Source of the DNA: Escherichia virus TH22
Sequence record: MT446396.1
Strand: one strand, 5' to 3'
Length of the DNA: 64,000 nucleotides
This document shows, in pieces, positions 2,326 to 60,448 of the stretch. The position numbers and the translations under genes were made by a program. The notes under the pieces were generated by a model. The model had not been told where the DNA came from, searched no databases, and saw only the letters and a program-made list of their open reading frames with translations. Position 1 is the stretch's first letter; each line of letters begins with the position of its first letter.

Positions 2326-3285
2326 ATGATGTTAGTTATTGGCTCTCGCGCATTGCATAACGCCGGTCTGATTGAAAGTAAGAAAATTGAAAACTCTGAT
2401 TGGGACTTTATAGCAGACCAAGGTTCCTGGAACAACTTTAAAACCCAGATGATGGGGCAGCATGTTCCTGTGGATAACCCAGATGTGCAAGCTTTTAAGT
2501 GTATGCACAACGGTAAAGAAACCTATTTTGAAGCATACATCGTCCGAGCCCTGACAAGTGTTCGTGAGCTGACTGATGAGCTACAAGAGGAAGATTTTAC
2601 TTCCAGTTATCGTCTGCTCAAATATGCGAAGGCGAATATTCAGAAAGACCGTCTATCTGGTTTTTACTGGGCGACTCCTGATATTTGTCTGGCAATTAAA
2701 CTGTCTCATCGTTACCTGAAGAACAATCCATTCTTCCTGAAGACCATGAGTCATATTAATTACCTTCGTAATAAGGGTGTTGTTCTTAATGATGAACTGC
2801 AGAAAATCATGCTGCAACGCCAGGCAGAAACATTGTCATATAGCCACCCTAAACTAGACGTGGGCAAGAAAACTTTCTTTAATGATACAATCTATACCCT
2901 TGACCATGACTCCATCCACGAGGCCGTGGCACTTGCTGATAAGCCTGCATATAAGTTCTATATGAAGGATGATTCAGAAGTCATGACCTCACGTGAAAAA
3001 TTTGAAGCACTCCCTGATGTTATTAAACTGGCAGGGGTTTATGAAGAAGCATGTGTGCTTGCTCTGGAACGTTCACAGGTTCCTAATGAGTTCAATATCT
3101 CTCCATCCGTGAGCTTCCATATTGCTCTGGAAAAAGTCTGTACCTCCATTACTTCTGGATGGTTCCGTGAGTATGCCTGGGAACATTACCAGGATGTGGT
3201 TAATATGTACAACACCCTGGGACACGAAGACTATGTTAAACGTTTCAAAGCTAACCAACATTTAATTCGTCCTTTCGAAAAATAA
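2326..3285 (+). CDS. hypothetical protein, possible nucleotidyltransferase fold
   Basis: N-terminal GS-x16-SDWDF pattern reminiscent of Pol-beta NTase motif; SD GAGGAAAAT. Confidence 0.5.
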   Translation: MMLVIGSRALHNAGLIESKKIENSDWDFIADQGSWNNFKTQMMGQHVPVDNPDVQAFKCMHNGKETYFEAYIVRALTSVRELTDELQEEDFTSSYRLLKYAKANIQKDRLSGFYWATPDICLAIKLSHRYLKNNPFFLKTMSHINYLRNKGVVLNDELQKIMLQRQAETLSYSHPKLDVGKKTFFNDTIYTLDHDSIHEAVALADKPAYKFYMKDDSEVMTSREKFEALPDVIKLAGVYEEACVLALERSQVPNEFNISPSVSFHIALEKVCTSITSGWFREYAWEHYQDVVNMYNTLGHEDYVKRFKANQHLIRPFEK

Positions 3286-3344: not shown

Positions 3345-4031
3345 ATGAACGGTCCTAAAACTTTTAATAGTCAAGCTCGTGCAGTAGGTGGTTTTGCCGG
3401 CGGTATTTCTAATGATAAAATCAAGAACGAGCCTATGTTCTTCAACTGTAGTTTAGAATTTGCTTATAATAACGGCGGTCCTATTACTCGCAGCTTCATC
3501 ATGAACTTGCCAGATGATTGGAACACCGACCAGGTTGTATTTGATTCTCGGGTTCATATGCTGATGCCTGGTTGGTATCCTGCTATCCCAGGTTATCACC
3601 ATGACGATGTACCACGCCCGGATATTCCGGTTGGTCAACACTTTATTACTGCAGGGCAACCTGATTATGATAATCCTCGTTACCATTCTGAACATATTCT
3701 TGGTCTTGTTAACGCTGATGTGTGTCCTACTTATTTTGCAACCGGAACTGCACAATTTAGTCAGATTCCTGAAGGCGAACTTATCTATCGCCAGTGGCAT
3801 AAAGAAGTTCTGGAAAAAATTGAGTCCAATGAATTAACCAAGTGGGATGCTCCTGACCGCACGTTGCTCCAGTTTGATTGGCAGACATGGCATACAGGTT
3901 CTCGCGCAGTAAGTAACGGTTGGCGCTGGTTTGGTCGCGTGTCTCGTAATACCGACCGTGTTAAAAAGATTACAAATGAAATCCGCGTTAATGCTCAAGT
4001 ATATCTGGAATTCCCTATGGAGGGATGGTAA
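3345..4031 (+). CDS. hypothetical protein
   Basis: Early promoter (GTGTACAA -35, CATAAT -10) and SD upstream; 228 aa. Confidence 0.5.
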   Translation: MNGPKTFNSQARAVGGFAGGISNDKIKNEPMFFNCSLEFAYNNGGPITRSFIMNLPDDWNTDQVVFDSRVHMLMPGWYPAIPGYHHDDVPRPDIPVGQHFITAGQPDYDNPRYHSEHILGLVNADVCPTYFATGTAQFSQIPEGELIYRQWHKEVLEKIESNELTKWDAPDRTLLQFDWQTWHTGSRAVSNGWRWFGRVSRNTDRVKKITNEIRVNAQVYLEFPMEGW

Positions 4032-4606
4032 TGATGTATGAACCCGGTTGCATGGGTGATATGAAAGGTCCACAAGGATGTGCAGGTATTCCAGTTCCAA
4101 GAGATGAATTTATGATTACCAAAAGATATTGGGCAGACCTTGATGATGGCGATGAAGGAATCAAGGTGGAAAACGTTGATTGGTCGCGATGCAATCGCCA
4201 TATGAAAGAGCTTTTAATTGAGGAATATAAAATGAAGCACATCGTTAAAGGTTGGCAACCAGAACCACATAAAGAACAAACACCTGACCCATTGATTTGT
4301 TATAGTGAAAAATATGGTTTTCGTACATGGAGCGATGAATATGACAAGTTAGTGTGCTCCAGATTCTATGCCTGGATGGGAATACTATTTTTTCCAATCC
4401 TGTGGTTTTTCCTGACAACGAAAAATGACTTGCCAGTTTGCATATTCGGGGCAGCAGTGACTGCGGCCATTGCAGGTATTATCGCCTCATTTTTATGGAC
4501 TGCGATTATTGAAGTACCTTTTCGTATTTCTAAAGTTAAAAAGGTATATGACAATATCACAAAGAAAAATACATTGAACTCTTTTATTGAGGAATGTCGC
4601 AAATGA
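4025..4606 (+). CDS. hypothetical membrane protein
   Basis: C-terminal hydrophobic segments (WMGILFFPILWFFL, IFGAAVTAAIAGIIASFLW). Confidence 0.45.
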   Translation: MVMMYEPGCMGDMKGPQGCAGIPVPRDEFMITKRYWADLDDGDEGIKVENVDWSRCNRHMKELLIEEYKMKHIVKGWQPEPHKEQTPDPLICYSEKYGFRTWSDEYDKLVCSRFYAWMGILFFPILWFFLTTKNDLPVCIFGAAVTAAIAGIIASFLWTAIIEVPFRISKVKKVYDNITKKNTLNSFIEECRK

Positions 4607-4839
4607 GTATTGCAATTTATATTAAATCCGAGTCATGTGATTCTTACCTGTATTCCTATGATAAAGGTACGCCCGAAGTTGAAATCAAAGATGATTTAGA
4701 AATTGACCTGGACTTGTTCCGCCCAATTTCTGAATACAGAGTTCAAACTTCTAGTAGTGAATCACCTTCAACAGAAACACGCATTGAAATTATTATGGCT
4801 GAAATCTTTAAAAAATCTTGGGAACGTGATGATGAGTAA
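4603..4839 (+). CDS. hypothetical acidic protein
   Basis: ATGA overlap with upstream gene; start could be 4594. Confidence 0.4.
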   Translation: MSIAIYIKSESCDSYLYSYDKGTPEVEIKDDLEIDLDLFRPISEYRVQTSSSESPSTETRIEIIMAEIFKKSWERDDE

Positions 4840-5290
4840 GAAAAACGTGGTGAAAGAATTATCTGCTGGCATTATTTTCATGACTGAAGATAAAGAGTTA
4901 TTCATGGGGCGCGTGACTGGTTCTCGCAAACCGGGTATGCCTGCGCATAAATGGGATATCCCTAAGGGTCATGTTGAAGCCGGTGAATCCCCGATTGAAG
5001 CAGCTATGCGTGAATGTGAAGAAGAAACAGGCTTTACCCAGTATGACCCGGCATTCTTAAAAGACCTAGGCGAGTTCCGTTATTCAGATAACAAAAACCT
5101 TCACCTGTTTTTGTACACGGCCCCGGTCGAGCATGAGCAGTTCAGACATAGTAAATGCTCTGCCTATCATACCTTCCCGGATGGTAGTTCGGCCCCCGAG
5201 TTTGATGCATTTGCTCTGATTAAACCGAGCCAATGGCAATACGTAATGGGTAAATCGATGTACAAGGTTTTGACTCAAATTTTCGGATAA
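4829..5290 (+). CDS. nudE: Nudix hydrolase NudE-like
   Basis: Nudix box GHVEAGESPIEAAMRECEEETG; sits directly upstream of lysozyme e as in T4. Confidence 0.8.
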   Translation: MMSKKNVVKELSAGIIFMTEDKELFMGRVTGSRKPGMPAHKWDIPKGHVEAGESPIEAAMRECEEETGFTQYDPAFLKDLGEFRYSDNKNLHLFLYTAPVEHEQFRHSKCSAYHTFPDGSSAPEFDAFALIKPSQWQYVMGKSMYKVLTQIFG

Positions 5291-5316
5291 TAAATACCCC
5301 TATATAAGGGGGTATT

Positions 5317-5808
5317 ATGAATATATTCGAAATGTTACGCATAGATGAAGGTTGTAAGTTGGATTTGTACCGTGACACCGAAGGCTTTTGGACCATCGGC
5401 ATCGGTCAATTGATAACTAAGAACCCATCGAAAGACGTTGCTCGCGCTGAGCTGGACAAATTAATGGGTCGTGTTTGCAACGGTAGGATTACCCAGATTG
5501 AAGCTGAAACCTTGTTTAACCGTTCAGTGGAAAAAGCTAAAGCCGGAATCTTGAAACATCCTGTCTTAAAACCTGTTTATGATGTACTGGATGAAGTTCG
5601 TCGTTGCGCACTCATTAATATGGTATTCCAAATGGGTGTAGCTGGTGTAGCTGGTTTTCCTAAGGGGCTGCGATTGCTCAAGGCTAAATCATGGGAAGCT
5701 GCTGCTAAGGAACTGGCTGACTCAAGATGGTATAAAGTCCAGACTCCGAACCGGGCCAAACGAGTTATTGAAACTTTCCGTACTGGAACTTTTGACGCAT
5801 ACAAATGA
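5317..5808 (+). CDS. e: lysozyme (endolysin) e
   Basis: 163 aa; [12 protein letters not shown]...GFWTIGIG matches T4 lysozyme nearly residue for residue over the N-terminus. Confidence 0.95.
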
Positions 5809-50432: not shown

Positions 50433-50677
50433 ACTGGTTAACAAATATTCCCACATCGGCGCTGGATATCGACCGTAAACATGCTCATAAGGAAATCGAG
50501 CAACAAAAAATTAATCGTTTACAAAGGCTTAAGACTGAATCCGAGACAATTAAAGTCGAAACCCCGATAAAATCGAAAAGTTCTTACTCATCATATCAAT
50601 CTCCATCATACCAATCTCCGATTGGTATGGCCGTAGACATTGCAGTCTTTGGCGTTCCACTTGGAGTGTTTAAGTAG
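50429..50677 (+). CDS. hypothetical protein with Ser/Tyr-rich segment
   Basis: KSSYSSYQSPSYQSP followed by hydrophobic C-terminus. Confidence 0.4.
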   Translation: MNWLTNIPTSALDIDRKHAHKEIEQQKINRLQRLKTESETIKVETPIKSKSSYSSYQSPSYQSPIGMAVDIAVFGVPLGVFK

Positions 50678-52088: not shown

Positions 52089-52835
52089 ATGACTTTATCA
52101 AAAACCAAAACGCTGAAAGTTAAACGTCGCCTGGAACACACTCAAGCTTCTGCTAAACGTCGTGGCAAGGACTTTAACCTGGATTTCAATTACCTGGTTA
52201 ACATTCTTGACCAAAAAGTTTGTGCTTATTCTGGTGAAACATTTAATAACTCTATTGAAGGTGAGAAGTTATCATTAGAGCGTTTTAACAATGACATTGG
52301 TTATATCAAAGGTAATGTTATTCCTGTTAAAAAGAAATACAACACCATGCGTTCTGATTGGTCCCTGGATGAGCTTAAACAACGTCGTGATGATGTTGCT
52401 GTAAAAATTGCTCGTCCATCTGTCAAGAAGATTGAAAAGTTAAATCTGACTGCAGAGAAATGGGAACAGATTAAAAAGTCATATACCCATATCAAGAACA
52501 TCCAACACAAACGTGAGAATCGCGTTAAGCATTATGCTCAAATGAGTAAATCAGAGCAGTCCAAAGAAAACCAATTAAAAATGGTTGCTCTGAAGGCTCG
52601 CATTGATGGTTCCCGTATTGCGGAAGGTCATGAGCTTACTAAATTGAACGTCTTGCTCAAAGGTAATGACTGGAAAGTTACCAAGAAATTAACTAATGCT
52701 GAAACGCTTTTTGATTGCTATGATAAAATCATTCAAGGTCTTGAGCGTTTTGAGAAGATTGGTTTTATTGGTAAATTAAAACTGAAACGTGGTCTGCCTT
52801 TGAACGCGTCAATTTTTAAACTGATTAGAGGTTAA
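52089..52835 (+). CDS. hypothetical protein with degenerate HNH-like motif (Srd position)
   Basis: CAYSGETF...LSLERFNNDIGYIKGNVIPVKKKYNTMRSD resembles an HNH pattern with Cys/His replaced. Confidence 0.45.
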   Translation: MTLSKTKTLKVKRRLEHTQASAKRRGKDFNLDFNYLVNILDQKVCAYSGETFNNSIEGEKLSLERFNNDIGYIKGNVIPVKKKYNTMRSDWSLDELKQRRDDVAVKIARPSVKKIEKLNLTAEKWEQIKKSYTHIKNIQHKRENRVKHYAQMSKSEQSKENQLKMVALKARIDGSRIAEGHELTKLNVLLKGNDWKVTKKLTNAETLFDCYDKIIQGLERFEKIGFIGKLKLKRGLPLNASIFKLIRG

Positions 52836-52839
52836 TGTG

Positions 52840-53136
52840 ATGTACTACGCATATGTGCTGGTCCACAAAGATAAAGATGGTTTTGAACACCCATTGGAGT
52901 ATGATGGAAAGGTTACCTTATACACCACAAAAGTGGGCGCAGAATATGAACTTGCCAACTATTCATATACTACAAGCCGCTATTTACGCATGGGACGTAT
53001 TGAAACAGTATGCACACCTAGAAAATGGTGGTTTGATAAGTGGGAAACAAAAACTGTTTTTCCTACTGAAGAACACGCACGAGAATTGAAATTAATTTTA
53101 GATACTTTATATGTTAAGCGAGTAAAATTGGCATGA
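52840..53136 (+). CDS. hypothetical protein
   Basis: ATG 52840 (track start GTG 52837); directly upstream of dda. Confidence 0.4.
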   Translation: MYYAYVLVHKDKDGFEHPLEYDGKVTLYTTKVGAEYELANYSYTTSRYLRMGRIETVCTPRKWWFDKWETKTVFPTEEHARELKLILDTLYVKRVKLA

Positions 53137-54461
53137 TTAAATTTGAAGACTTGAACACAGGACAAAAAGAAGCTTTTGATTATATTACTGAAGCTATTCA
53201 GCGACGTTCAGGGGAATGTATCACTCTGAATGGTCCAGCTGGCACAGGTAAGACCACTCTGACAAAATTTGTCATTGACCACTTAGTGCGTAATGGAGTT
53301 ATGGGAATTGTGCTTGCTGCACCAACTCACCAGGCGAAAAAAGTTTTATCTAAATTGTCTGGTCAAACAGCGAATACAATCCATAGTATCTTGAAGATTA
53401 ACCCAACGACATATGAAGACCAAAACGTTTTTGAACAGCGCGAAATGCCTGACATGTCAAAATGCAATGTTCTGGTTTGTGATGAAGCAAGTATGTATGA
53501 CGGGTCTCTGTTTAAGATTATTCTTAACTCTGTTCCTGAATGGTGCACTATTCTTGGAATTGGTGATATGCACCAGCTGCAGCCAGTTGACCCGGGAAGC
53601 ACACAGCAAAAGATAAGCCCGTTCTTTACGCATCCTAAGTTCAAACAGATTCATCTGACTGAGGTCATGCGAAGCAATGCTCCTATCATTGAAGTGGCGA
53701 CAGAAATTCGCAATGGCGGCTGGTTCCGTGACTGTATGTATGAAGGTCATGGCGTGCAAGGTTTCACCTCACAAACCGCTTTAAAGGATTTCATGGTAAA
53801 CTATTTCAGTATTGTAAAAGATGCTGATATGTTGATGGAAAACAGGATGTATGCATACACGAATAAATCAGTTGAAAAACTGAACAATATTATTCGTCGC
53901 AAGCTCTATGAAACGGATAAAGCATTTTTACCGTATGAAGTCCTGGTTATGCAAGAGCCGCACATGAAAGAGCTGGAATTTGAAGGTAAGAAATTCAGCG
54001 AAACCATTTTTAATAATGGTCAGTTGGTTCGCATCAAGGATTGCAAATACACTTCCACTATTCTCCGCTGTAAAGGCGAATCGCACCAGTTAGTGATTAA
54101 TTACTGGGACCTGGAAGTTGAGTCAATTGATGAAGATGAAGAATATCAGGTTGACCGCATCAAAGTTTTACCAGAAGACCAGCAACCAAAATTCCAGGCA
54201 TATCTGGCGAAAGTTGCTGACACATACAAACAGATGAAAGCCGCTGGTAAACGTCCAGAGTGGAAAGACTTCTGGAAAGCGCGCAGGACCTTCTTGAAAG
54301 TCCGTGCTCTTCCGGTCAGTACAATCCACAAGGCCCAAGGCGTTTCAGTGGACAAAGCATTCATCTATACTCCATGCATCCATATGGCCGAAGCTTCATT
54401 AGCGAGCCAGTTGGCTTATGTTGGAATCACACGAGCGAGGTACGACGCATATTATGTATAA
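53133..54461 (+). CDS. dda: DNA helicase Dda (SF1B)
   Basis: Walker A GPAGTGKTT, LAAPTHQAKKVLSKLSG, C-terminal YVGITRARYD; matches T4 Dda. Confidence 0.95.
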   Translation: MIKFEDLNTGQKEAFDYITEAIQRRSGECITLNGPAGTGKTTLTKFVIDHLVRNGVMGIVLAAPTHQAKKVLSKLSGQTANTIHSILKINPTTYEDQNVFEQREMPDMSKCNVLVCDEASMYDGSLFKIILNSVPEWCTILGIGDMHQLQPVDPGSTQQKISPFFTHPKFKQIHLTEVMRSNAPIIEVATEIRNGGWFRDCMYEGHGVQGFTSQTALKDFMVNYFSIVKDADMLMENRMYAYTNKSVEKLNNIIRRKLYETDKAFLPYEVLVMQEPHMKELEFEGKKFSETIFNNGQLVRIKDCKYTSTILRCKGESHQLVINYWDLEVESIDEDEEYQVDRIKVLPEDQQPKFQAYLAKVADTYKQMKAAGKRPEWKDFWKARRTFLKVRALPVSTIHKAQGVSVDKAFIYTPCIHMAEASLASQLAYVGITRARYDAYYV

Positions 54462-54699
54462 AGTACATAAAGAAGATTTAGATAATCTTATCTATGGTAT
54501 TCAGGACGCGGTTGAATTTTTCGAAGATAATCCGACTATCGTCGTGCAGGGTAATTACGTTTTGCTGGAACTGAATCTTATTCGGAAACGTATGGCCGCG
54601 ATTGAATATTTTAACAATGAAGAGCCAGGGATTTTTATCTCCGACTATGTTGCTGGTGAAATTCAGAAATTAAAAGAGATGTGCGATGGTTGCTGGTGA
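54454..54699 (+). CDS. hypothetical protein
   Basis: C-terminus altered by 40-bp tandem duplication at 54649-54728. Confidence 0.4.
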   Translation: MYKVHKEDLDNLIYGIQDAVEFFEDNPTIVVQGNYVLLELNLIRKRMAAIEYFNNEEPGIFISDYVAGEIQKLKEMCDGCW

Positions 54700-54728
54700 A
54701 ATTCAAAAATTAAAAGAGATGTGCGATG
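54649..54728 (+). repeat. 40-bp tandem direct duplication (2 copies, 1 mismatch)
   Basis: GTTGCTGGTGAAATTCA(G/A)AAATTAAAAGAGATGTGCGATG twice in tandem; second copy ends in dexA ATG. Confidence 0.85.
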
Positions 54729-55409
54729 ATTGATGCTATTATTGACTTTGAAACTCTGGGAAACGGCTCGAAGGGAGCCGTTATTGACCTGGCTCTGATT
54801 ACATTCGAATCTGACCCTGCTATTGTGGAATCATTCGAAACCCTGGTTAATCGCGGCAAACGTATCAAGTTTAGCCTTGAATACCAAAAAGGTAAGCGTC
54901 TGTTCGATACAACAACCATGGGTTGGTGGAAAAAGCAATCAGCAGAAGCCCGTGTTAACTTGGCTCCTTCTGCGCAAGATGTTGATACTCTGACCGGTAT
55001 CCAACAGGCAATTGATTATCTGAATGGTAATGGAATTAACAAATACGAAAGCCTTATGTGGTGTCGTGGAATGTCTTTTGACTTCCCGTTGTTTGTTGAC
55101 CTTATCCGTGACCTACAGCGCAATGAGGGTATTCCCGAGCGTGAATTGAATACCTATGGCCTGGAGCCGGTTGTATTCTGGAACCAGCGAGATATCAGGA
55201 CAGCAATCGAAGCCCTATCACTCGTCCGTAAGATGTGTGAAACTCCATTACCAAAGGGGACTTTAGATGGATTTGTGGCGCATGATTCGGTGCATGACTG
55301 CGCGAAAGATATTTTGATGCTTAAGTACGCCCAGCGCTATGCTCTTGGTTTAGATGAAGTTCCTTCCGAAGAAGATGCAGACCCGTTATCTTTACCGAAA
55401 AAACGATAA
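54726..55409 (+). CDS. dexA: exonuclease A (DexA)
   Basis: 227 aa; DEDDh-like N-terminus MIDAIIDFETLG; position after dda as in T4. Confidence 0.9.
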   Translation: MIDAIIDFETLGNGSKGAVIDLALITFESDPAIVESFETLVNRGKRIKFSLEYQKGKRLFDTTTMGWWKKQSAEARVNLAPSAQDVDTLTGIQQAIDYLNGNGINKYESLMWCRGMSFDFPLFVDLIRDLQRNEGIPERELNTYGLEPVVFWNQRDIRTAIEALSLVRKMCETPLPKGTLDGFVAHDSVHDCAKDILMLKYAQRYALGLDEVPSEEDADPLSLPKKR

Positions 55410-55415
55410 AAAGTA

Positions 55416-55476
55416 GTGTACAAGGCCAATGGAAAGAGACATAATCATCTCATCAACTACTGATGAGGATAACAAA
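55416..55476 (+). promoter_or_regulatory. early promoter plus conserved leader
   Basis: GTGTACAAG -35, CATAAT -10, leader ATCAACTACTGATGAGG. Confidence 0.5.
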
Positions 55477-55734
55477 ATGATTACTTCTTTTGAAATTGGC
55501 CAACAATATGAAATGTCTGCTCTTCAAGCTGCTGAAGCAGGTCTGACTGAAGCGTTTGAATGTGCATTTACAAATATTCGTGGTAAAATCTTTACTGTCA
55601 ATAAAATTGCGGTATATGATAAAGAAACAGACATGAACAAAGGCATCTACCTGAACGTGTCAAACGCCAAAGGTCGTCGTGAAATTATGGTTGTACAACC
55701 TAATCAACTGGCGATGTTCAATAAGGTTGCATAA
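55477..55734 (+). CDS. hypothetical protein
   Basis: Early promoter and conserved leader upstream. Confidence 0.4.
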   Translation: MITSFEIGQQYEMSALQAAEAGLTEAFECAFTNIRGKIFTVNKIAVYDKETDMNKGIYLNVSNAKGRREIMVVQPNQLAMFNKVA

Positions 55735-56486
55735 TGAAACCAGAATTTATTGACTTTGATGTTGTAAGTATGTATGTTCGCCCAATTAAACCATTAAAAC
55801 TTGAGAAACAAAATATGACTATTGAAATTAACAAAACTTATCATCTGGTTAAACCTATTACTCAAAACGCAGCTATGATTTCTGGGTATAATACTCTGGC
55901 TGATGCTTTAGGTGAAGGTGAATTTATTGTTGAAACTTTTGTAAAAAGTAACTGGTTTTATAACGCATATATTCTGCATGCACGTCGCCTTGATACTAAT
56001 GAAGTAGAAAAAATTATTGTTTATGAAGCTGAGATTGAGCTCTTCAAGGAAGTTGAAGAAACTCCTATCAAAGTTGGCAAAATCTATCAACTTGTTGGAT
56101 ATGGTGATTTTGATAATACTAATGCATTGAATGCCGGTTGGCGCGTACTGAAAGGTATTTTTGGATTTGCTCCATTTACCGTTAAAACAGTTAAGTACCA
56201 CAATCACCAAAGCATCTTTGAATTTACTGCGGTCAATGAATCAGGTGACAATCTTGAAGCTATCCTTTATCCGCGTGAATCTGTACTGCTGGAAGAAGTT
56301 AGCGAACTGGGTGACCCTATTGACTTGTTATGTAAACCAGTTCAAATCAAACGCCCATTTAACAGTTCCATTTGTGGTTGGGTAACAGACCAGTGGATTG
56401 AAGATGGCGTTGAACTCCTGAACGTTGTTCATGCTGGTGAATTTACTGTTGTTCCACGTTCCATGGTTGTTGAAATTTTTAATTAA
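55734..56486 (+). CDS. hypothetical protein (paralog of 56565..57056)
   Basis: C-terminal GWVTDQWIEDGVELLNVVHAGEFTVVP shared with next gene. Confidence 0.45.
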   Translation: MKPEFIDFDVVSMYVRPIKPLKLEKQNMTIEINKTYHLVKPITQNAAMISGYNTLADALGEGEFIVETFVKSNWFYNAYILHARRLDTNEVEKIIVYEAEIELFKEVEETPIKVGKIYQLVGYGDFDNTNALNAGWRVLKGIFGFAPFTVKTVKYHNHQSIFEFTAVNESGDNLEAILYPRESVLLEEVSELGDPIDLLCKPVQIKRPFNSSICGWVTDQWIEDGVELLNVVHAGEFTVVPRSMVVEIFN

Positions 56487-58615: not shown

Positions 58616-60448
58616 ATGATGATTAATAATGAAATTAAAGTACTCTCGGACGTCGAGCATATCAAAAAACGTTCCGGGATGTATATTGGTTCCAGTTCAA
58701 ATGAAGCGCATGAGCGATTCTTGTTTGGTGAATATAAGTCCGTAAGCTATGTTCCTGGTATTGTAAAACTGATTGATGAAATTATTGATAACTCTGTTGA
58801 TGAAGCAATTCGCACCAGTTTTAAATTTGCCAATAAAATTGATGTTCAAATTAAAGACAATCAGATTTCGGTTTCTGATAATGGCCGTGGTATTCCACAA
58901 GCAATGGTTACAGACCAAAACGGTGAACAAATCCCTGGCCCTGTTGCAGCATGGACTATTCCAAAAGCAGGTGGCAACTTCGGTGATGATGCTGAACGTA
59001 AAACTGGCGGGATGAATGGCGTCGGGTCTTCTCTGACCAATATTTTCTCTGTATTGTTCACCGGGATTACCGCTGATGGTGCAAATGAAATCACCGTTAA
59101 CTGCTCCAATGGTATGGAAAACAAAGGTTGGTCTACCAAGAAATCTAAGGGTAAAGGTACAACTGTTATTTTTGTTCCGGACTTCAGTCACTTTGAAGAA
59201 AATAGTCTGTCCCAGATTTATCTGGATATTACATTGGACCGTCTGCAGACTCTTGCGGTTGTTTATCCGGATATTCAGTTTACCTTTAATGGTAAAAAGG
59301 TTGATGGCAATTTCAAGAAGTTCGCCAAGCAATTCGGAACCGAAGTTGTTATCCAGGAAACTGATACAGTATCGATGGCCTTTACGACTAGCCCGGATGG
59401 TTTCCGCCAGTTGACTTATGTCAACAACATTCATACAAAGAATGGTGGGCACCACGTTGAATGTGTTATGGATGATATCTGTGAACATCTTCAGCCAGCC
59501 ATTAAACGCAAATATAAAGGCATTGAGGTGACAAAGGCACGAGTTAAAGAATGCCTCACCATGCTTATGTTCATCCGCGATATGAGCAACATGCGATTTG
59601 ATTCCCAGACTAAGGAGCGATTGACTTCTCCGGCTGGTGAAATTCGAAATCACATTAAGATTGATGCCAAGAAAATCGCACAAGCTATTCTGAAAAATGA
59701 ACCGCTGATTATGCCGATTGTTGAAGCTGCATTAGCCCGTAAATTGGCTGCAGAGAAAGCAGCAGAGACCAAGGCGAATAAGAAAGCTTCAAAGGCCAAG
59801 GTGCAAAAGCATATCAAGGCTAACGAATGGGGCAATGATAAGCTGGAAACGACTCTGTTCCTGACCGAAGGTGATTCTGCAACCGGTCCATTTATCAAGG
59901 TCCGCGACCGTGAATTACAAGGTGCTTATCCGTTACGTGGTAAGTTCAAAAACACATGGGGTCTGAAAGCTGTTGACGTTATGAAGAACGCCGAAGCCTT
60001 TGATGTTTGTGCGATTACTGGTTTAACGATTGGACAACCGGCCGAGAATATGAATTACCGAAACATTGCTATCATGACAGATGCGGATGTGGATGGTGTT
60101 GGTAGTATCTATCCATCGTTATTGGCGTTTTTCAGTAACTGGCCGGAGCTGTTCCATGAAGGGCGAATTCGCTTTGTGAAAACTCCTGTTATTATTGCGC
60201 AGCTCAAAGATAAACAAGAATGGTTTTATTCTCTTCCTGATTATGAAGAAGCTAAGGATAAACTTCCGAAGCATACTATCAGATATATAAAGGGACTTGG
60301 TTCTCTGGAAGATGCCGAGTACAAACGCGTATTGCTCGAACCGGTATTCGAAGTTGTTCAATTGCCCGACAACTGGAAAGAACTGTTCGAAATGCTCTTC
60401 GGTAAAGATTCCCAGCAGCGTAAAGATTGGATGAATGCAACACTATAA
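58616..60448 (+). CDS. 39: DNA topoisomerase II large subunit, fused gp39+gp60 form
   Basis: 610 aa; GHKL ATPase N-terminus and Toprim region in one uninterrupted ORF. Confidence 0.95.
   Translation: MMINNEIKVLSDVEHIKKRSGMYIGSSSNEAHERFLFGEYKSVSYVPGIVKLIDEIIDNSVDEAIRTSFKFANKIDVQIKDNQISVSDNGRGIPQAMVTDQNGEQIPGPVAAWTIPKAGGNFGDDAERKTGGMNGVGSSLTNIFSVLFTGITADGANEITVNCSNGMENKGWSTKKSKGKGTTVIFVPDFSHFEENSLSQIYLDITLDRLQTLAVVYPDIQFTFNGKKVDGNFKKFAKQFGTEVVIQETDTVSMAFTTSPDGFRQLTYVNNIHTKNGGHHVECVMDDICEHLQPAIKRKYKGIEVTKARVKECLTMLMFIRDMSNMRFDSQTKERLTSPAGEIRNHIKIDAKKIAQAILKNEPLIMPIVEAALARKLAAEKAAETKANKKASKAKVQKHIKANEWGNDKLETTLFLTEGDSATGPFIKVRDRELQGAYPLRGKFKNTWGLKAVDVMKNAEAFDVCAITGLTIGQPAENMNYRNIAIMTDADVDGVGSIYPSLLAFFSNWPELFHEGRIRFVKTPVIIAQLKDKQEWFYSLPDYEEAKDKLPKHTIRYIKGLGSLEDAEYKRVLLEPVFEVVQLPDNWKELFEMLFGKDSQQRKDWMNATL

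Follow-up and report, generated by a model that had tools for sequence, protein, structure and literature searches.

The window analysed here, i.e., the whole stretch of 64,000 nucleotides, represents a T4-like phage of the genus Gaprivervirus. Direct alignment showed it to be collinear with phage TH55 over 25 kb, with 4 mismatches and no gaps, and a single base in 5.8 kb distinguishes it from UPEC07. Along the plus strand, a homologue of dda.1 is followed by dda, an open reading frame (ORF) of the dexA.2 family, dexA and the genes of the motB region. The dda helicase gene occupies positions 53133-54461 (plus strand), as indicated by its match to phrog_325 (Dda-like helicase, E 9e-167) and by the annotations of related phages, and its stop overlaps the start of the dexA.2-family ORF within ATGTATAA (54454-54461). 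This small ORF extends from 54454 to 54699 on the plus strand and translates into 81 amino acids with the C-terminus KEMCDGCW. It matches phrog_5263 (E 5e-32, the match beginning at residue 13 of a 93-aa ORF) and, among the precomputed Pfam matches, PF26837 (Phage_T4_Y00H_G); a local Pfam scan of the small ORF returned no family, the precomputed match notwithstanding. Both the sequence match and the position between dda and dexA place the product in the DexA.2/DexA.1 family (PF26837, phrog_5263), and it is 31% identical to T4 DexA.2 and 28% identical to T4 DexA.1. The ATG at 54454 is likely to be the DexA.2 start, since the family profile begins there, a strong predicted Shine-Dalgarno pairing precedes it (-9.4 kcal/mol) and it overlaps the dda stop, while the in-frame ATG at 54418, which would yield a protein of 93 aa, is probably not used. 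In T4, DexA.2 is an uncharacterised 9.5-kDa protein that is reported to be a target of cGAS conjugation by a CBASS defence system (PMC10097602), and its gene lies on a polycistronic transcript reaching from dda.1 to dexA.1 (bioRxiv 10.1101/2024.04.04.588121). The downstream gene, located at 54726-55409 on the plus strand, encodes 227 aa and had been named dexA in the sequence-only reading, a name borne out by 65% identity to T4 DexA across the entire 227 residues (E 8e-115). The product further matches phrog_255 (exonuclease) and the Rv2179c-like 3'-5' exoribonuclease domain PF16473, and both the full-length similarity and the 3'-5' exonuclease domain expected of T4 exonuclease A are present.

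The junction between the two genes is occupied by a 40-base tandem duplication, which is real and well supported. Direct reading of the sequence revealed two head-to-tail copies without a spacer, copy 1 at 54649-54688 (GTTGCTGGTGAAATTCAGAAATTAAAAGAGATGTGCGATG, plus strand) and copy 2 at 54689-54728 (plus strand), which are identical at 39 of 40 positions; the sole mismatch is G54666 in copy 1 versus A54706 in copy 2, corresponding to position 18 of the unit. Tandem Repeats Finder reported the same structure (54649-54732, period 40, 2.1 copies, 95% matches, score 154), as did a separate repeat search (54649-54688 versus 54689-54728, 98% identical), and the position previously proposed for the duplication was thereby confirmed to the base. 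Given the base composition of the window, about 4e-17 adjacent 39/40 matches would be expected by chance in 64 kb. No other strong tandem repeat is present in the 64-kb window; two further ones, at 50589-50619 (15 bp, 2.1 copies) and at 58759-58804 (24 bp, 1.9 copies, with indels), are much weaker.

The first bases of the unit form the codon for V66 of DexA.2 and the last three exactly the ATG of dexA, and its length is of the form 3n+1. Copy 1, which has the same sequence as the most frequent one-copy allele among the relatives, encodes V66 to D78 of DexA.2, and its last bases are a duplicate of the dexA start codon. Copy 2 contains the new DexA.2 tail with its stop, a 26-nt spacer and the functional ribosome-binding region and ATG of dexA. 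The copies are joined at GATGGTTG, and the two-copy sequence spanning this junction reads GATGGTTGCTGG. The periodic stretch measures exactly 80 nt, the period being broken by the bases on both sides. The junction lacks perfect microhomology, an imperfect (G/A)TTG being the only candidate, and the suggestion that the duplication arose by short-homology recombination is hence weakly supported. Two specific routes were rejected: neither a 39-bp duplication through ATG/ATG microhomology nor a 40-bp duplication through TTG/TTG reproduces the observed junction without an extra change.

In phages with one copy, DexA.2 consists of 79 aa ending in KEMCDD, its TGA overlaps the dexA start by 8 nt within ATGATTGA, and the three genes dda, dexA.2 and dexA are linked by successive overlaps. 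Because the unit is of length 3n+1 and ends exactly with the dexA ATG, its duplication yields a new DexA.2 tail, an intact dexA and an additional ORF of 15 codons. The DexA.2 frame is shifted across the junction for three codons, by which CDD is replaced by CDGCW and the protein is extended to 81 aa with its stop at 54697-54699; dexA starts at the ATG at 54726 in the second copy. Both of these consequences, the new C-terminus and the retention of the dexA start in copy 2, had been anticipated correctly from the sequence. Where the one-copy relatives possess the 8-nt overlap, the window contains a new spacer of 26 nt between the DexA.2 stop and the dexA ATG (54700-54725, plus strand), which includes the Shine-Dalgarno-like element AAGAG at 54714-54718. 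The dexA coding sequence is unchanged, and its ATG still has native sequence in front of it for 40 nt or more, AAGAG included. An N-terminally extended DexA starting at the ATG of copy 1 was considered and rejected, as the two ATGs are 40 nt apart and thus out of frame. Instead, the copied dexA ATG at 54686, together with the ribosome-binding region in copy 1, opens a predicted upstream ORF of 15 codons, MVAGEIQKLKEMCDD, at 54686-54733 on the plus strand. Read in the former DexA.2 frame, this ORF contains a second instance of the motif that is most conserved in the DexA.2 family and terminates at the ancestral DexA.2 TGA (54731-54733), which overlaps the dexA start. In the window, the stop/start overlap with dexA is therefore no longer provided by DexA.2 and is held by the predicted upstream ORF. 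The predicted Shine-Dalgarno pairing of the upstream ORF equals that of dexA (-4.8 kcal/mol), and the ORF may be translated. Neither this ORF nor the ancestral 8-nt overlap had been described in the sequence-only reading. As judged from the sequence, the duplication separates two formerly overlapping genes and breaks neither of them.

Translational coupling usually takes the form of overlapping stop and start codons. The Shine-Dalgarno pairing of dexA is weak in comparison with the background (mean -2.7 kcal/mol, 25th percentile -4.1 kcal/mol), and with a weak ribosome-binding site and an overlapping upstream stop the translation of dexA was probably coupled to the upstream gene in the ancestral arrangement. 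After the duplication, dexA translation would be maintained, possibly by direct initiation at the weak Shine-Dalgarno site; alternatively, it might depend on re-initiation by ribosomes released 26 nt upstream or on a relay through the predicted 15-codon ORF. Folding of the two-copy RNA and of both possible one-copy alleles yielded similar structures and did not support a structural switch, the mean unpaired probability of the dexA start region ranging from 0.52 to 0.58 in all alleles. A scan of 52800-55800 identified neither a promoter nor a terminator in the unit, with counts at background level, and no terminator-like site in the region. The last residues of DexA.2 are not conserved in the family; the alignment with T4 ends before them. 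Similar folding, the lack of promoter and terminator in the unit and the unconserved DexA.2 end together argue against a larger effect, and our best estimate from these predictions is that the duplication would be a nearly neutral variant.

The distribution of the duplication among relatives was determined by a megablast search with an 801-bp query (54300-55100), which retrieved 33 phage records from each of which the junction was extracted. Ten of the records, representing nine isolates, are collinear with the duplication, and the other 23, representing 18 isolates, lack exactly 40 bp. Two copies occur in TH55, UPEC07, ECML-359, TH41, MN01, TH54, TH57, UPEC01 and VR20, and one copy in EAWsc9, vB_YenM_P8, pEC-M719-6WT.2, P896, 212, CJ20, P479, TH44, DCP80, DK-13, SP18, PSD2001, RZ, TH15, TH40, VR26, VR7 and VR25. 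The comparison with related isolates that had been called for thus returned the same structure in 9 of 27 isolates, by which the duplication is not isolate-specific. The carriers originate from Uganda, the USA, Lithuania and Bangladesh (the record of ECML-359 states no country) and were sequenced by different groups. Look-ups by exact protein match added about nine further two-copy assemblies from metagenomes and read archives (Logan, ENA), some of which may derive from the sequencing of isolates that are already included in the count; several of the additional two-copy alleles came from an exact match to the DexA.2 protein, and this subset is biased towards an unchanged tail. An unbiased look-up based on DexA alone gave ten contigs with identical DexA, four of them with two copies and six with one. 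Across all 53 loci the copy number is either one or two, and three copies occur in none of them. Scans of IMG/VR for the two-copy and the one-copy junction returned only the already known isolates VR20, VR25 and VR26. In the JGI metagenomes, no match to the junction was obtained, the unit being found in a single contig and in one copy, so that the prevalence outside the isolates was taken from the protein look-ups. Our search of the literature on dexA.2 and on Gaprivervirus together with duplication found no description of this variant.

All 26 two-copy loci comprise exactly 80 nt between conserved anchors and share the junction GATG|G(T/C)TG. They fall into seven alleles in which the copies differ at 0 to 3 of the 40 positions. 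The allele type of the window, with A at unit position 18 of copy 2, is present at 17 loci. In VR20 and UPEC01, the copies differ instead by C/T at unit position 36, with T in copy 2. In alleles from metagenomes, further variants are found in copy 2 (T at position 5, or C at position 2) and in copy 1 (C at position 9, or T at position 36). Copy 1 never carries any of the variants at positions 2, 5 and 18, and the one-copy alleles are devoid of them with a single exception, the phage pEC-M719-6WT.2, the only place outside copy 2 where the A at position 18 is found. As these variants are specific to copy 2, this copy appears to have had a history of its own, and the two-copy sequences are to be regarded as an established allele class rather than as repeated fresh events. 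As a separate observation, two Logan assemblies (SRR32022338 and SRR32022217) possess a one-copy allele that starts with ATT instead of GTT, corresponding to V66I in DexA.2, on flanks identical to those of the window.

The sequences surrounding the duplication are mosaic and, on the evidence of the alignments, appear very finely shuffled. According to the table of variable sites, the duplication resides on at least five flanking haplotypes, and in trees of the flanks the carriers are scattered among the non-carriers, a pattern compatible with recombination. The blocks of identity shared with the window measure 148-356 bp in the more distant carriers and 0.5-1.3 kb in ECML-359, MN01 and three one-copy phages. 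The latter, EAWsc9, vB_YenM_P8 and pEC-M719-6WT.2, match the window without a difference over 746-1259 bp surrounding the site. EAWsc9 illustrates the mosaicism: it is identical for 1259 bp at the site, whereas 299 differences separate it from the window in the 2.8 kb on the left-hand side (modA/srd, dda). The occurrence of the copy-2 marker A in pEC-M719-6WT.2, alone among the one-copy phages, suggests a collapse back to one copy, as this marker is the expected product of a deletion by crossover within the first 17 bases of the repeat. Two variable sites, 54642 and 54645, are located only 4-7 bp to the left of the duplication and differ among carriers, and in one allele from a metagenome (L039) the two copies are identical and the left flank resembles that of DK-13. 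A single origin can accommodate these two features only if crossing-over or gene conversion acted over a few tens of bases, or if transitions recurred.

Taken together, the duplication of the dexA.2/dexA junction is probably an inherited 40-bp polymorphism of Gaprivervirus that had a single origin, was spread by recombination, is occasionally lost and is nearly neutral. It would most likely have originated once, in an illegitimate event such as a slip of replication or an end-joining reaction with essentially no microhomology. A single event is favoured because independent recurrence of so odd a junction is unlikely; perfect microhomology is lacking, and the available ATG and TTG matches give other junctions. 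The copies would then have persisted long enough to diverge from each other, homologous recombination between co-infecting phages would have transferred the duplication onto different flanking haplotypes, and recombination or slippage between the two copies would occasionally have led to its loss.

Several other explanations have to be weighed against a single origin with recombinational spread. One of them, to which we assign a low probability, is that the same 40 bp were duplicated repeatedly and independently at a mutational hot spot, e.g., a site at which a topoisomerase or polymerase pauses. Such recurrence would account for sites distinguishing the haplotypes as near as 4 bp to the duplication, for the identical copies of L039, which match the one-copy allele of the DK-13 type on the same left flank, and for the alternation of one-copy and two-copy states among very close relatives. 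However, the exact recurrence of a junction that is neither perfectly microhomologous nor that of ATG/ATG (39 bp) or TTG/TTG is difficult to reconcile with independent events, and the copy-2-only variants at positions 2, 5 and 18, which are common to carriers, are not expected of fresh duplications. Moreover, the right flank of L039 equals that of VR20 and its left flank that of UPEC01, which fits recombination within one allele family.

A second possibility, likewise doubtful in our view, is that the duplication has been kept by selection, through the uncoupling of dexA, through the second start and upstream ORF or through the altered Cys-Trp tail of DexA.2. This explanation concerns the maintenance of the duplication and is compatible with a single origin. 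It would be in line with the presence of two copies in about one third of the isolates and in 4 of the 10 DexA-identical contigs, in many backgrounds and on several continents, although direct repeats can be lost, and with the weak Shine-Dalgarno sequence of dexA, owing to which the architecture of coupling could matter. It would also be consistent with the finding that, among the variants of copy 2, those at positions 2 and 5 are synonymous in the frame of the new tail and those at 18 and 36 in that of the upstream ORF, and DexA.2 of T4 is, as mentioned, targeted by a host defence system (PMC10097602). In contrast, the pattern of silent sites is either biased, due to the retrieval by exact protein match, or based on too few sites, the chance expectation for two sites being about 1/9. 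Both alleles exist on identical flanks, with apparent losses, and neither the folding analysis, the absence of promoter and terminator from the unit nor the unconserved last residues of the DexA.2 family point to a selected function. In a more specific form, the duplication might be a balanced, selected variant in which MVAGEIQKLKEMCDD acts as a regulatory upstream ORF or micropeptide, or in which the Cys-Trp tail makes DexA.2 functionally different; we consider this distinctly improbable. If it were true, the dosage of exonuclease A or the interaction with host defences would be altered, and the locus would provide a natural snapshot of the separation of overlapping genes and of the birth of a short ORF.

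A very recent slippage private to this isolate or its immediate lineage, as had been proposed from the sequence, would be suggested by the difference of the copies at just one of 40 bases and by the existence of one-copy phages with identical flanks. It is nevertheless very unlikely, since the identical allele, including G/A, occurs in TH54 and TH57 on flanks that are about 3% different within 500 bp on either side (31 and 35 differences from the window in about 1000 bases), and since the same breakpoint is shared by VR20 and UPEC01 with their different copy polymorphism; the existence of seven two-copy alleles, of variants private to copy 2 and of several flanking haplotypes equally speaks against it. 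Finally, assemblers are known to make errors at short tandem repeats, and the duplication had also been suspected to be an artefact of sequencing or assembly, i.e., a repeat wrongly expanded or collapsed by the assembler in a genome with a single copy, a chance we regard as negligible since more than one assembly and pipeline yielded the same 80-bp structure, which was recovered from nine isolates sequenced independently in different laboratories and from about nine assemblies produced by other pipelines (Logan; ENA contigs with k119 and k141 prefixes), with copy-specific substitutions common to independent records that would not be expected from an artefact.

The inherited polymorphism is a new instance of an ordinary, known kind of mutation and does not imply a new biological system. 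From the genetics of T4 rII it is known that spontaneous tandem duplications arise at sites of little or no homology and are lost by recombination between the copies. The duplication in the window resembles these T-even duplications in being short, head-to-tail, formed with little or no homology, inherited, frame-shifting and liable to loss by recombination or slippage; in contrast to them, it is a natural polymorphism present in 9 of 27 isolates in several alleles, and it damages neither of the flanking genes. A variation of copy number between close relatives, apparently with changes on identical flanks, is also characteristic of variable-number tandem repeats and contingency loci. However, the many reversible copy-number states of such loci were not observed among the 53 loci, which have one or two copies of a long unit, with the loss deduced from sequence comparison, and no essential reading frame is switched on and off by frameshift. 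Similarly, the features of a leader-peptide attenuator were not found, as there is no terminator-like site in 52800-55800 and no distinctive change in folding or accessibility.

A closer parallel is provided by refactored T7 and decompressed phiX174, in which overlapping genes have been separated by engineered duplication of the shared bases. As in these constructs, the overlap has been duplicated and the genes separated, with both coding sequences and the downstream ribosome-binding site kept. In the window, however, the event is natural and comprises 40 bp for an overlap of 8 bp, the end of the upstream protein is altered and a small extra ORF is left behind. The locus is thus a natural example in which the duplication of a gene junction undoes an overlap and yields a spacer, a protein tail and a small ORF in a single step. 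In T4 (NC_000866, 2644-2651, minus strand), dexA.2 is followed by the same overlap, ATGATTGA, with dexA.1 as the next gene. The one-copy Gapriverviruses have the same 8-nt overlap, and in the window the 15-codon ORF keeps it with dexA; unlike in T4, DexA.2 of the window stops 26 nt upstream, and any coupling would have to proceed through re-initiation over a short distance or through the upstream ORF as a relay. Within T4, DexA.2 and DexA.1 are 35% identical and form a paralogous pair (2409-2889, minus strand), which looks as if a whole gene had been duplicated in tandem at this locus long ago. Both events are tandem duplications at this locus, and the window protein matches both members of the pair; while the T4 duplication is old and comprises a whole gene of about 240 bp, that of the window comprises 40 bp with the 3' end of one gene and the start of the next.

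For the annotation of Gapriverviruses, two alleles of the dexA.2 gene end, encoding proteins of 79 or 81 aa, should be expected, and the repeat should not be 'fixed'. In addition, the identity blocks of 0.1-1.3 kb around the site illustrate how finely T4-like genomes are shuffled, and the duplication provides a handy 40-bp marker for recombination and repeat collapse in phages that are used for phage therapy and biocontrol. Three records of related phages contain peculiarities around this locus. In the RefSeq record of T4 (NC_000866, dexA.2 at 2644-2889), the product of dexA.2 is named 'dextranase', which looks like a misannotation driven by the name of the gene. The record of vB_YenM_P8 labels the dda.1 homologue (1041-1337) as 'mobile nuclease'; all other records list it as 'hypothetical protein'. 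In DCP80 (PQ671644, 140,978 bp), unlike in all other relatives, the ORF behind dexA is immediately followed by genes for terminase and tail sheath (3777-5761), which reflects a misassembly or else an extensive deletion or rearrangement.
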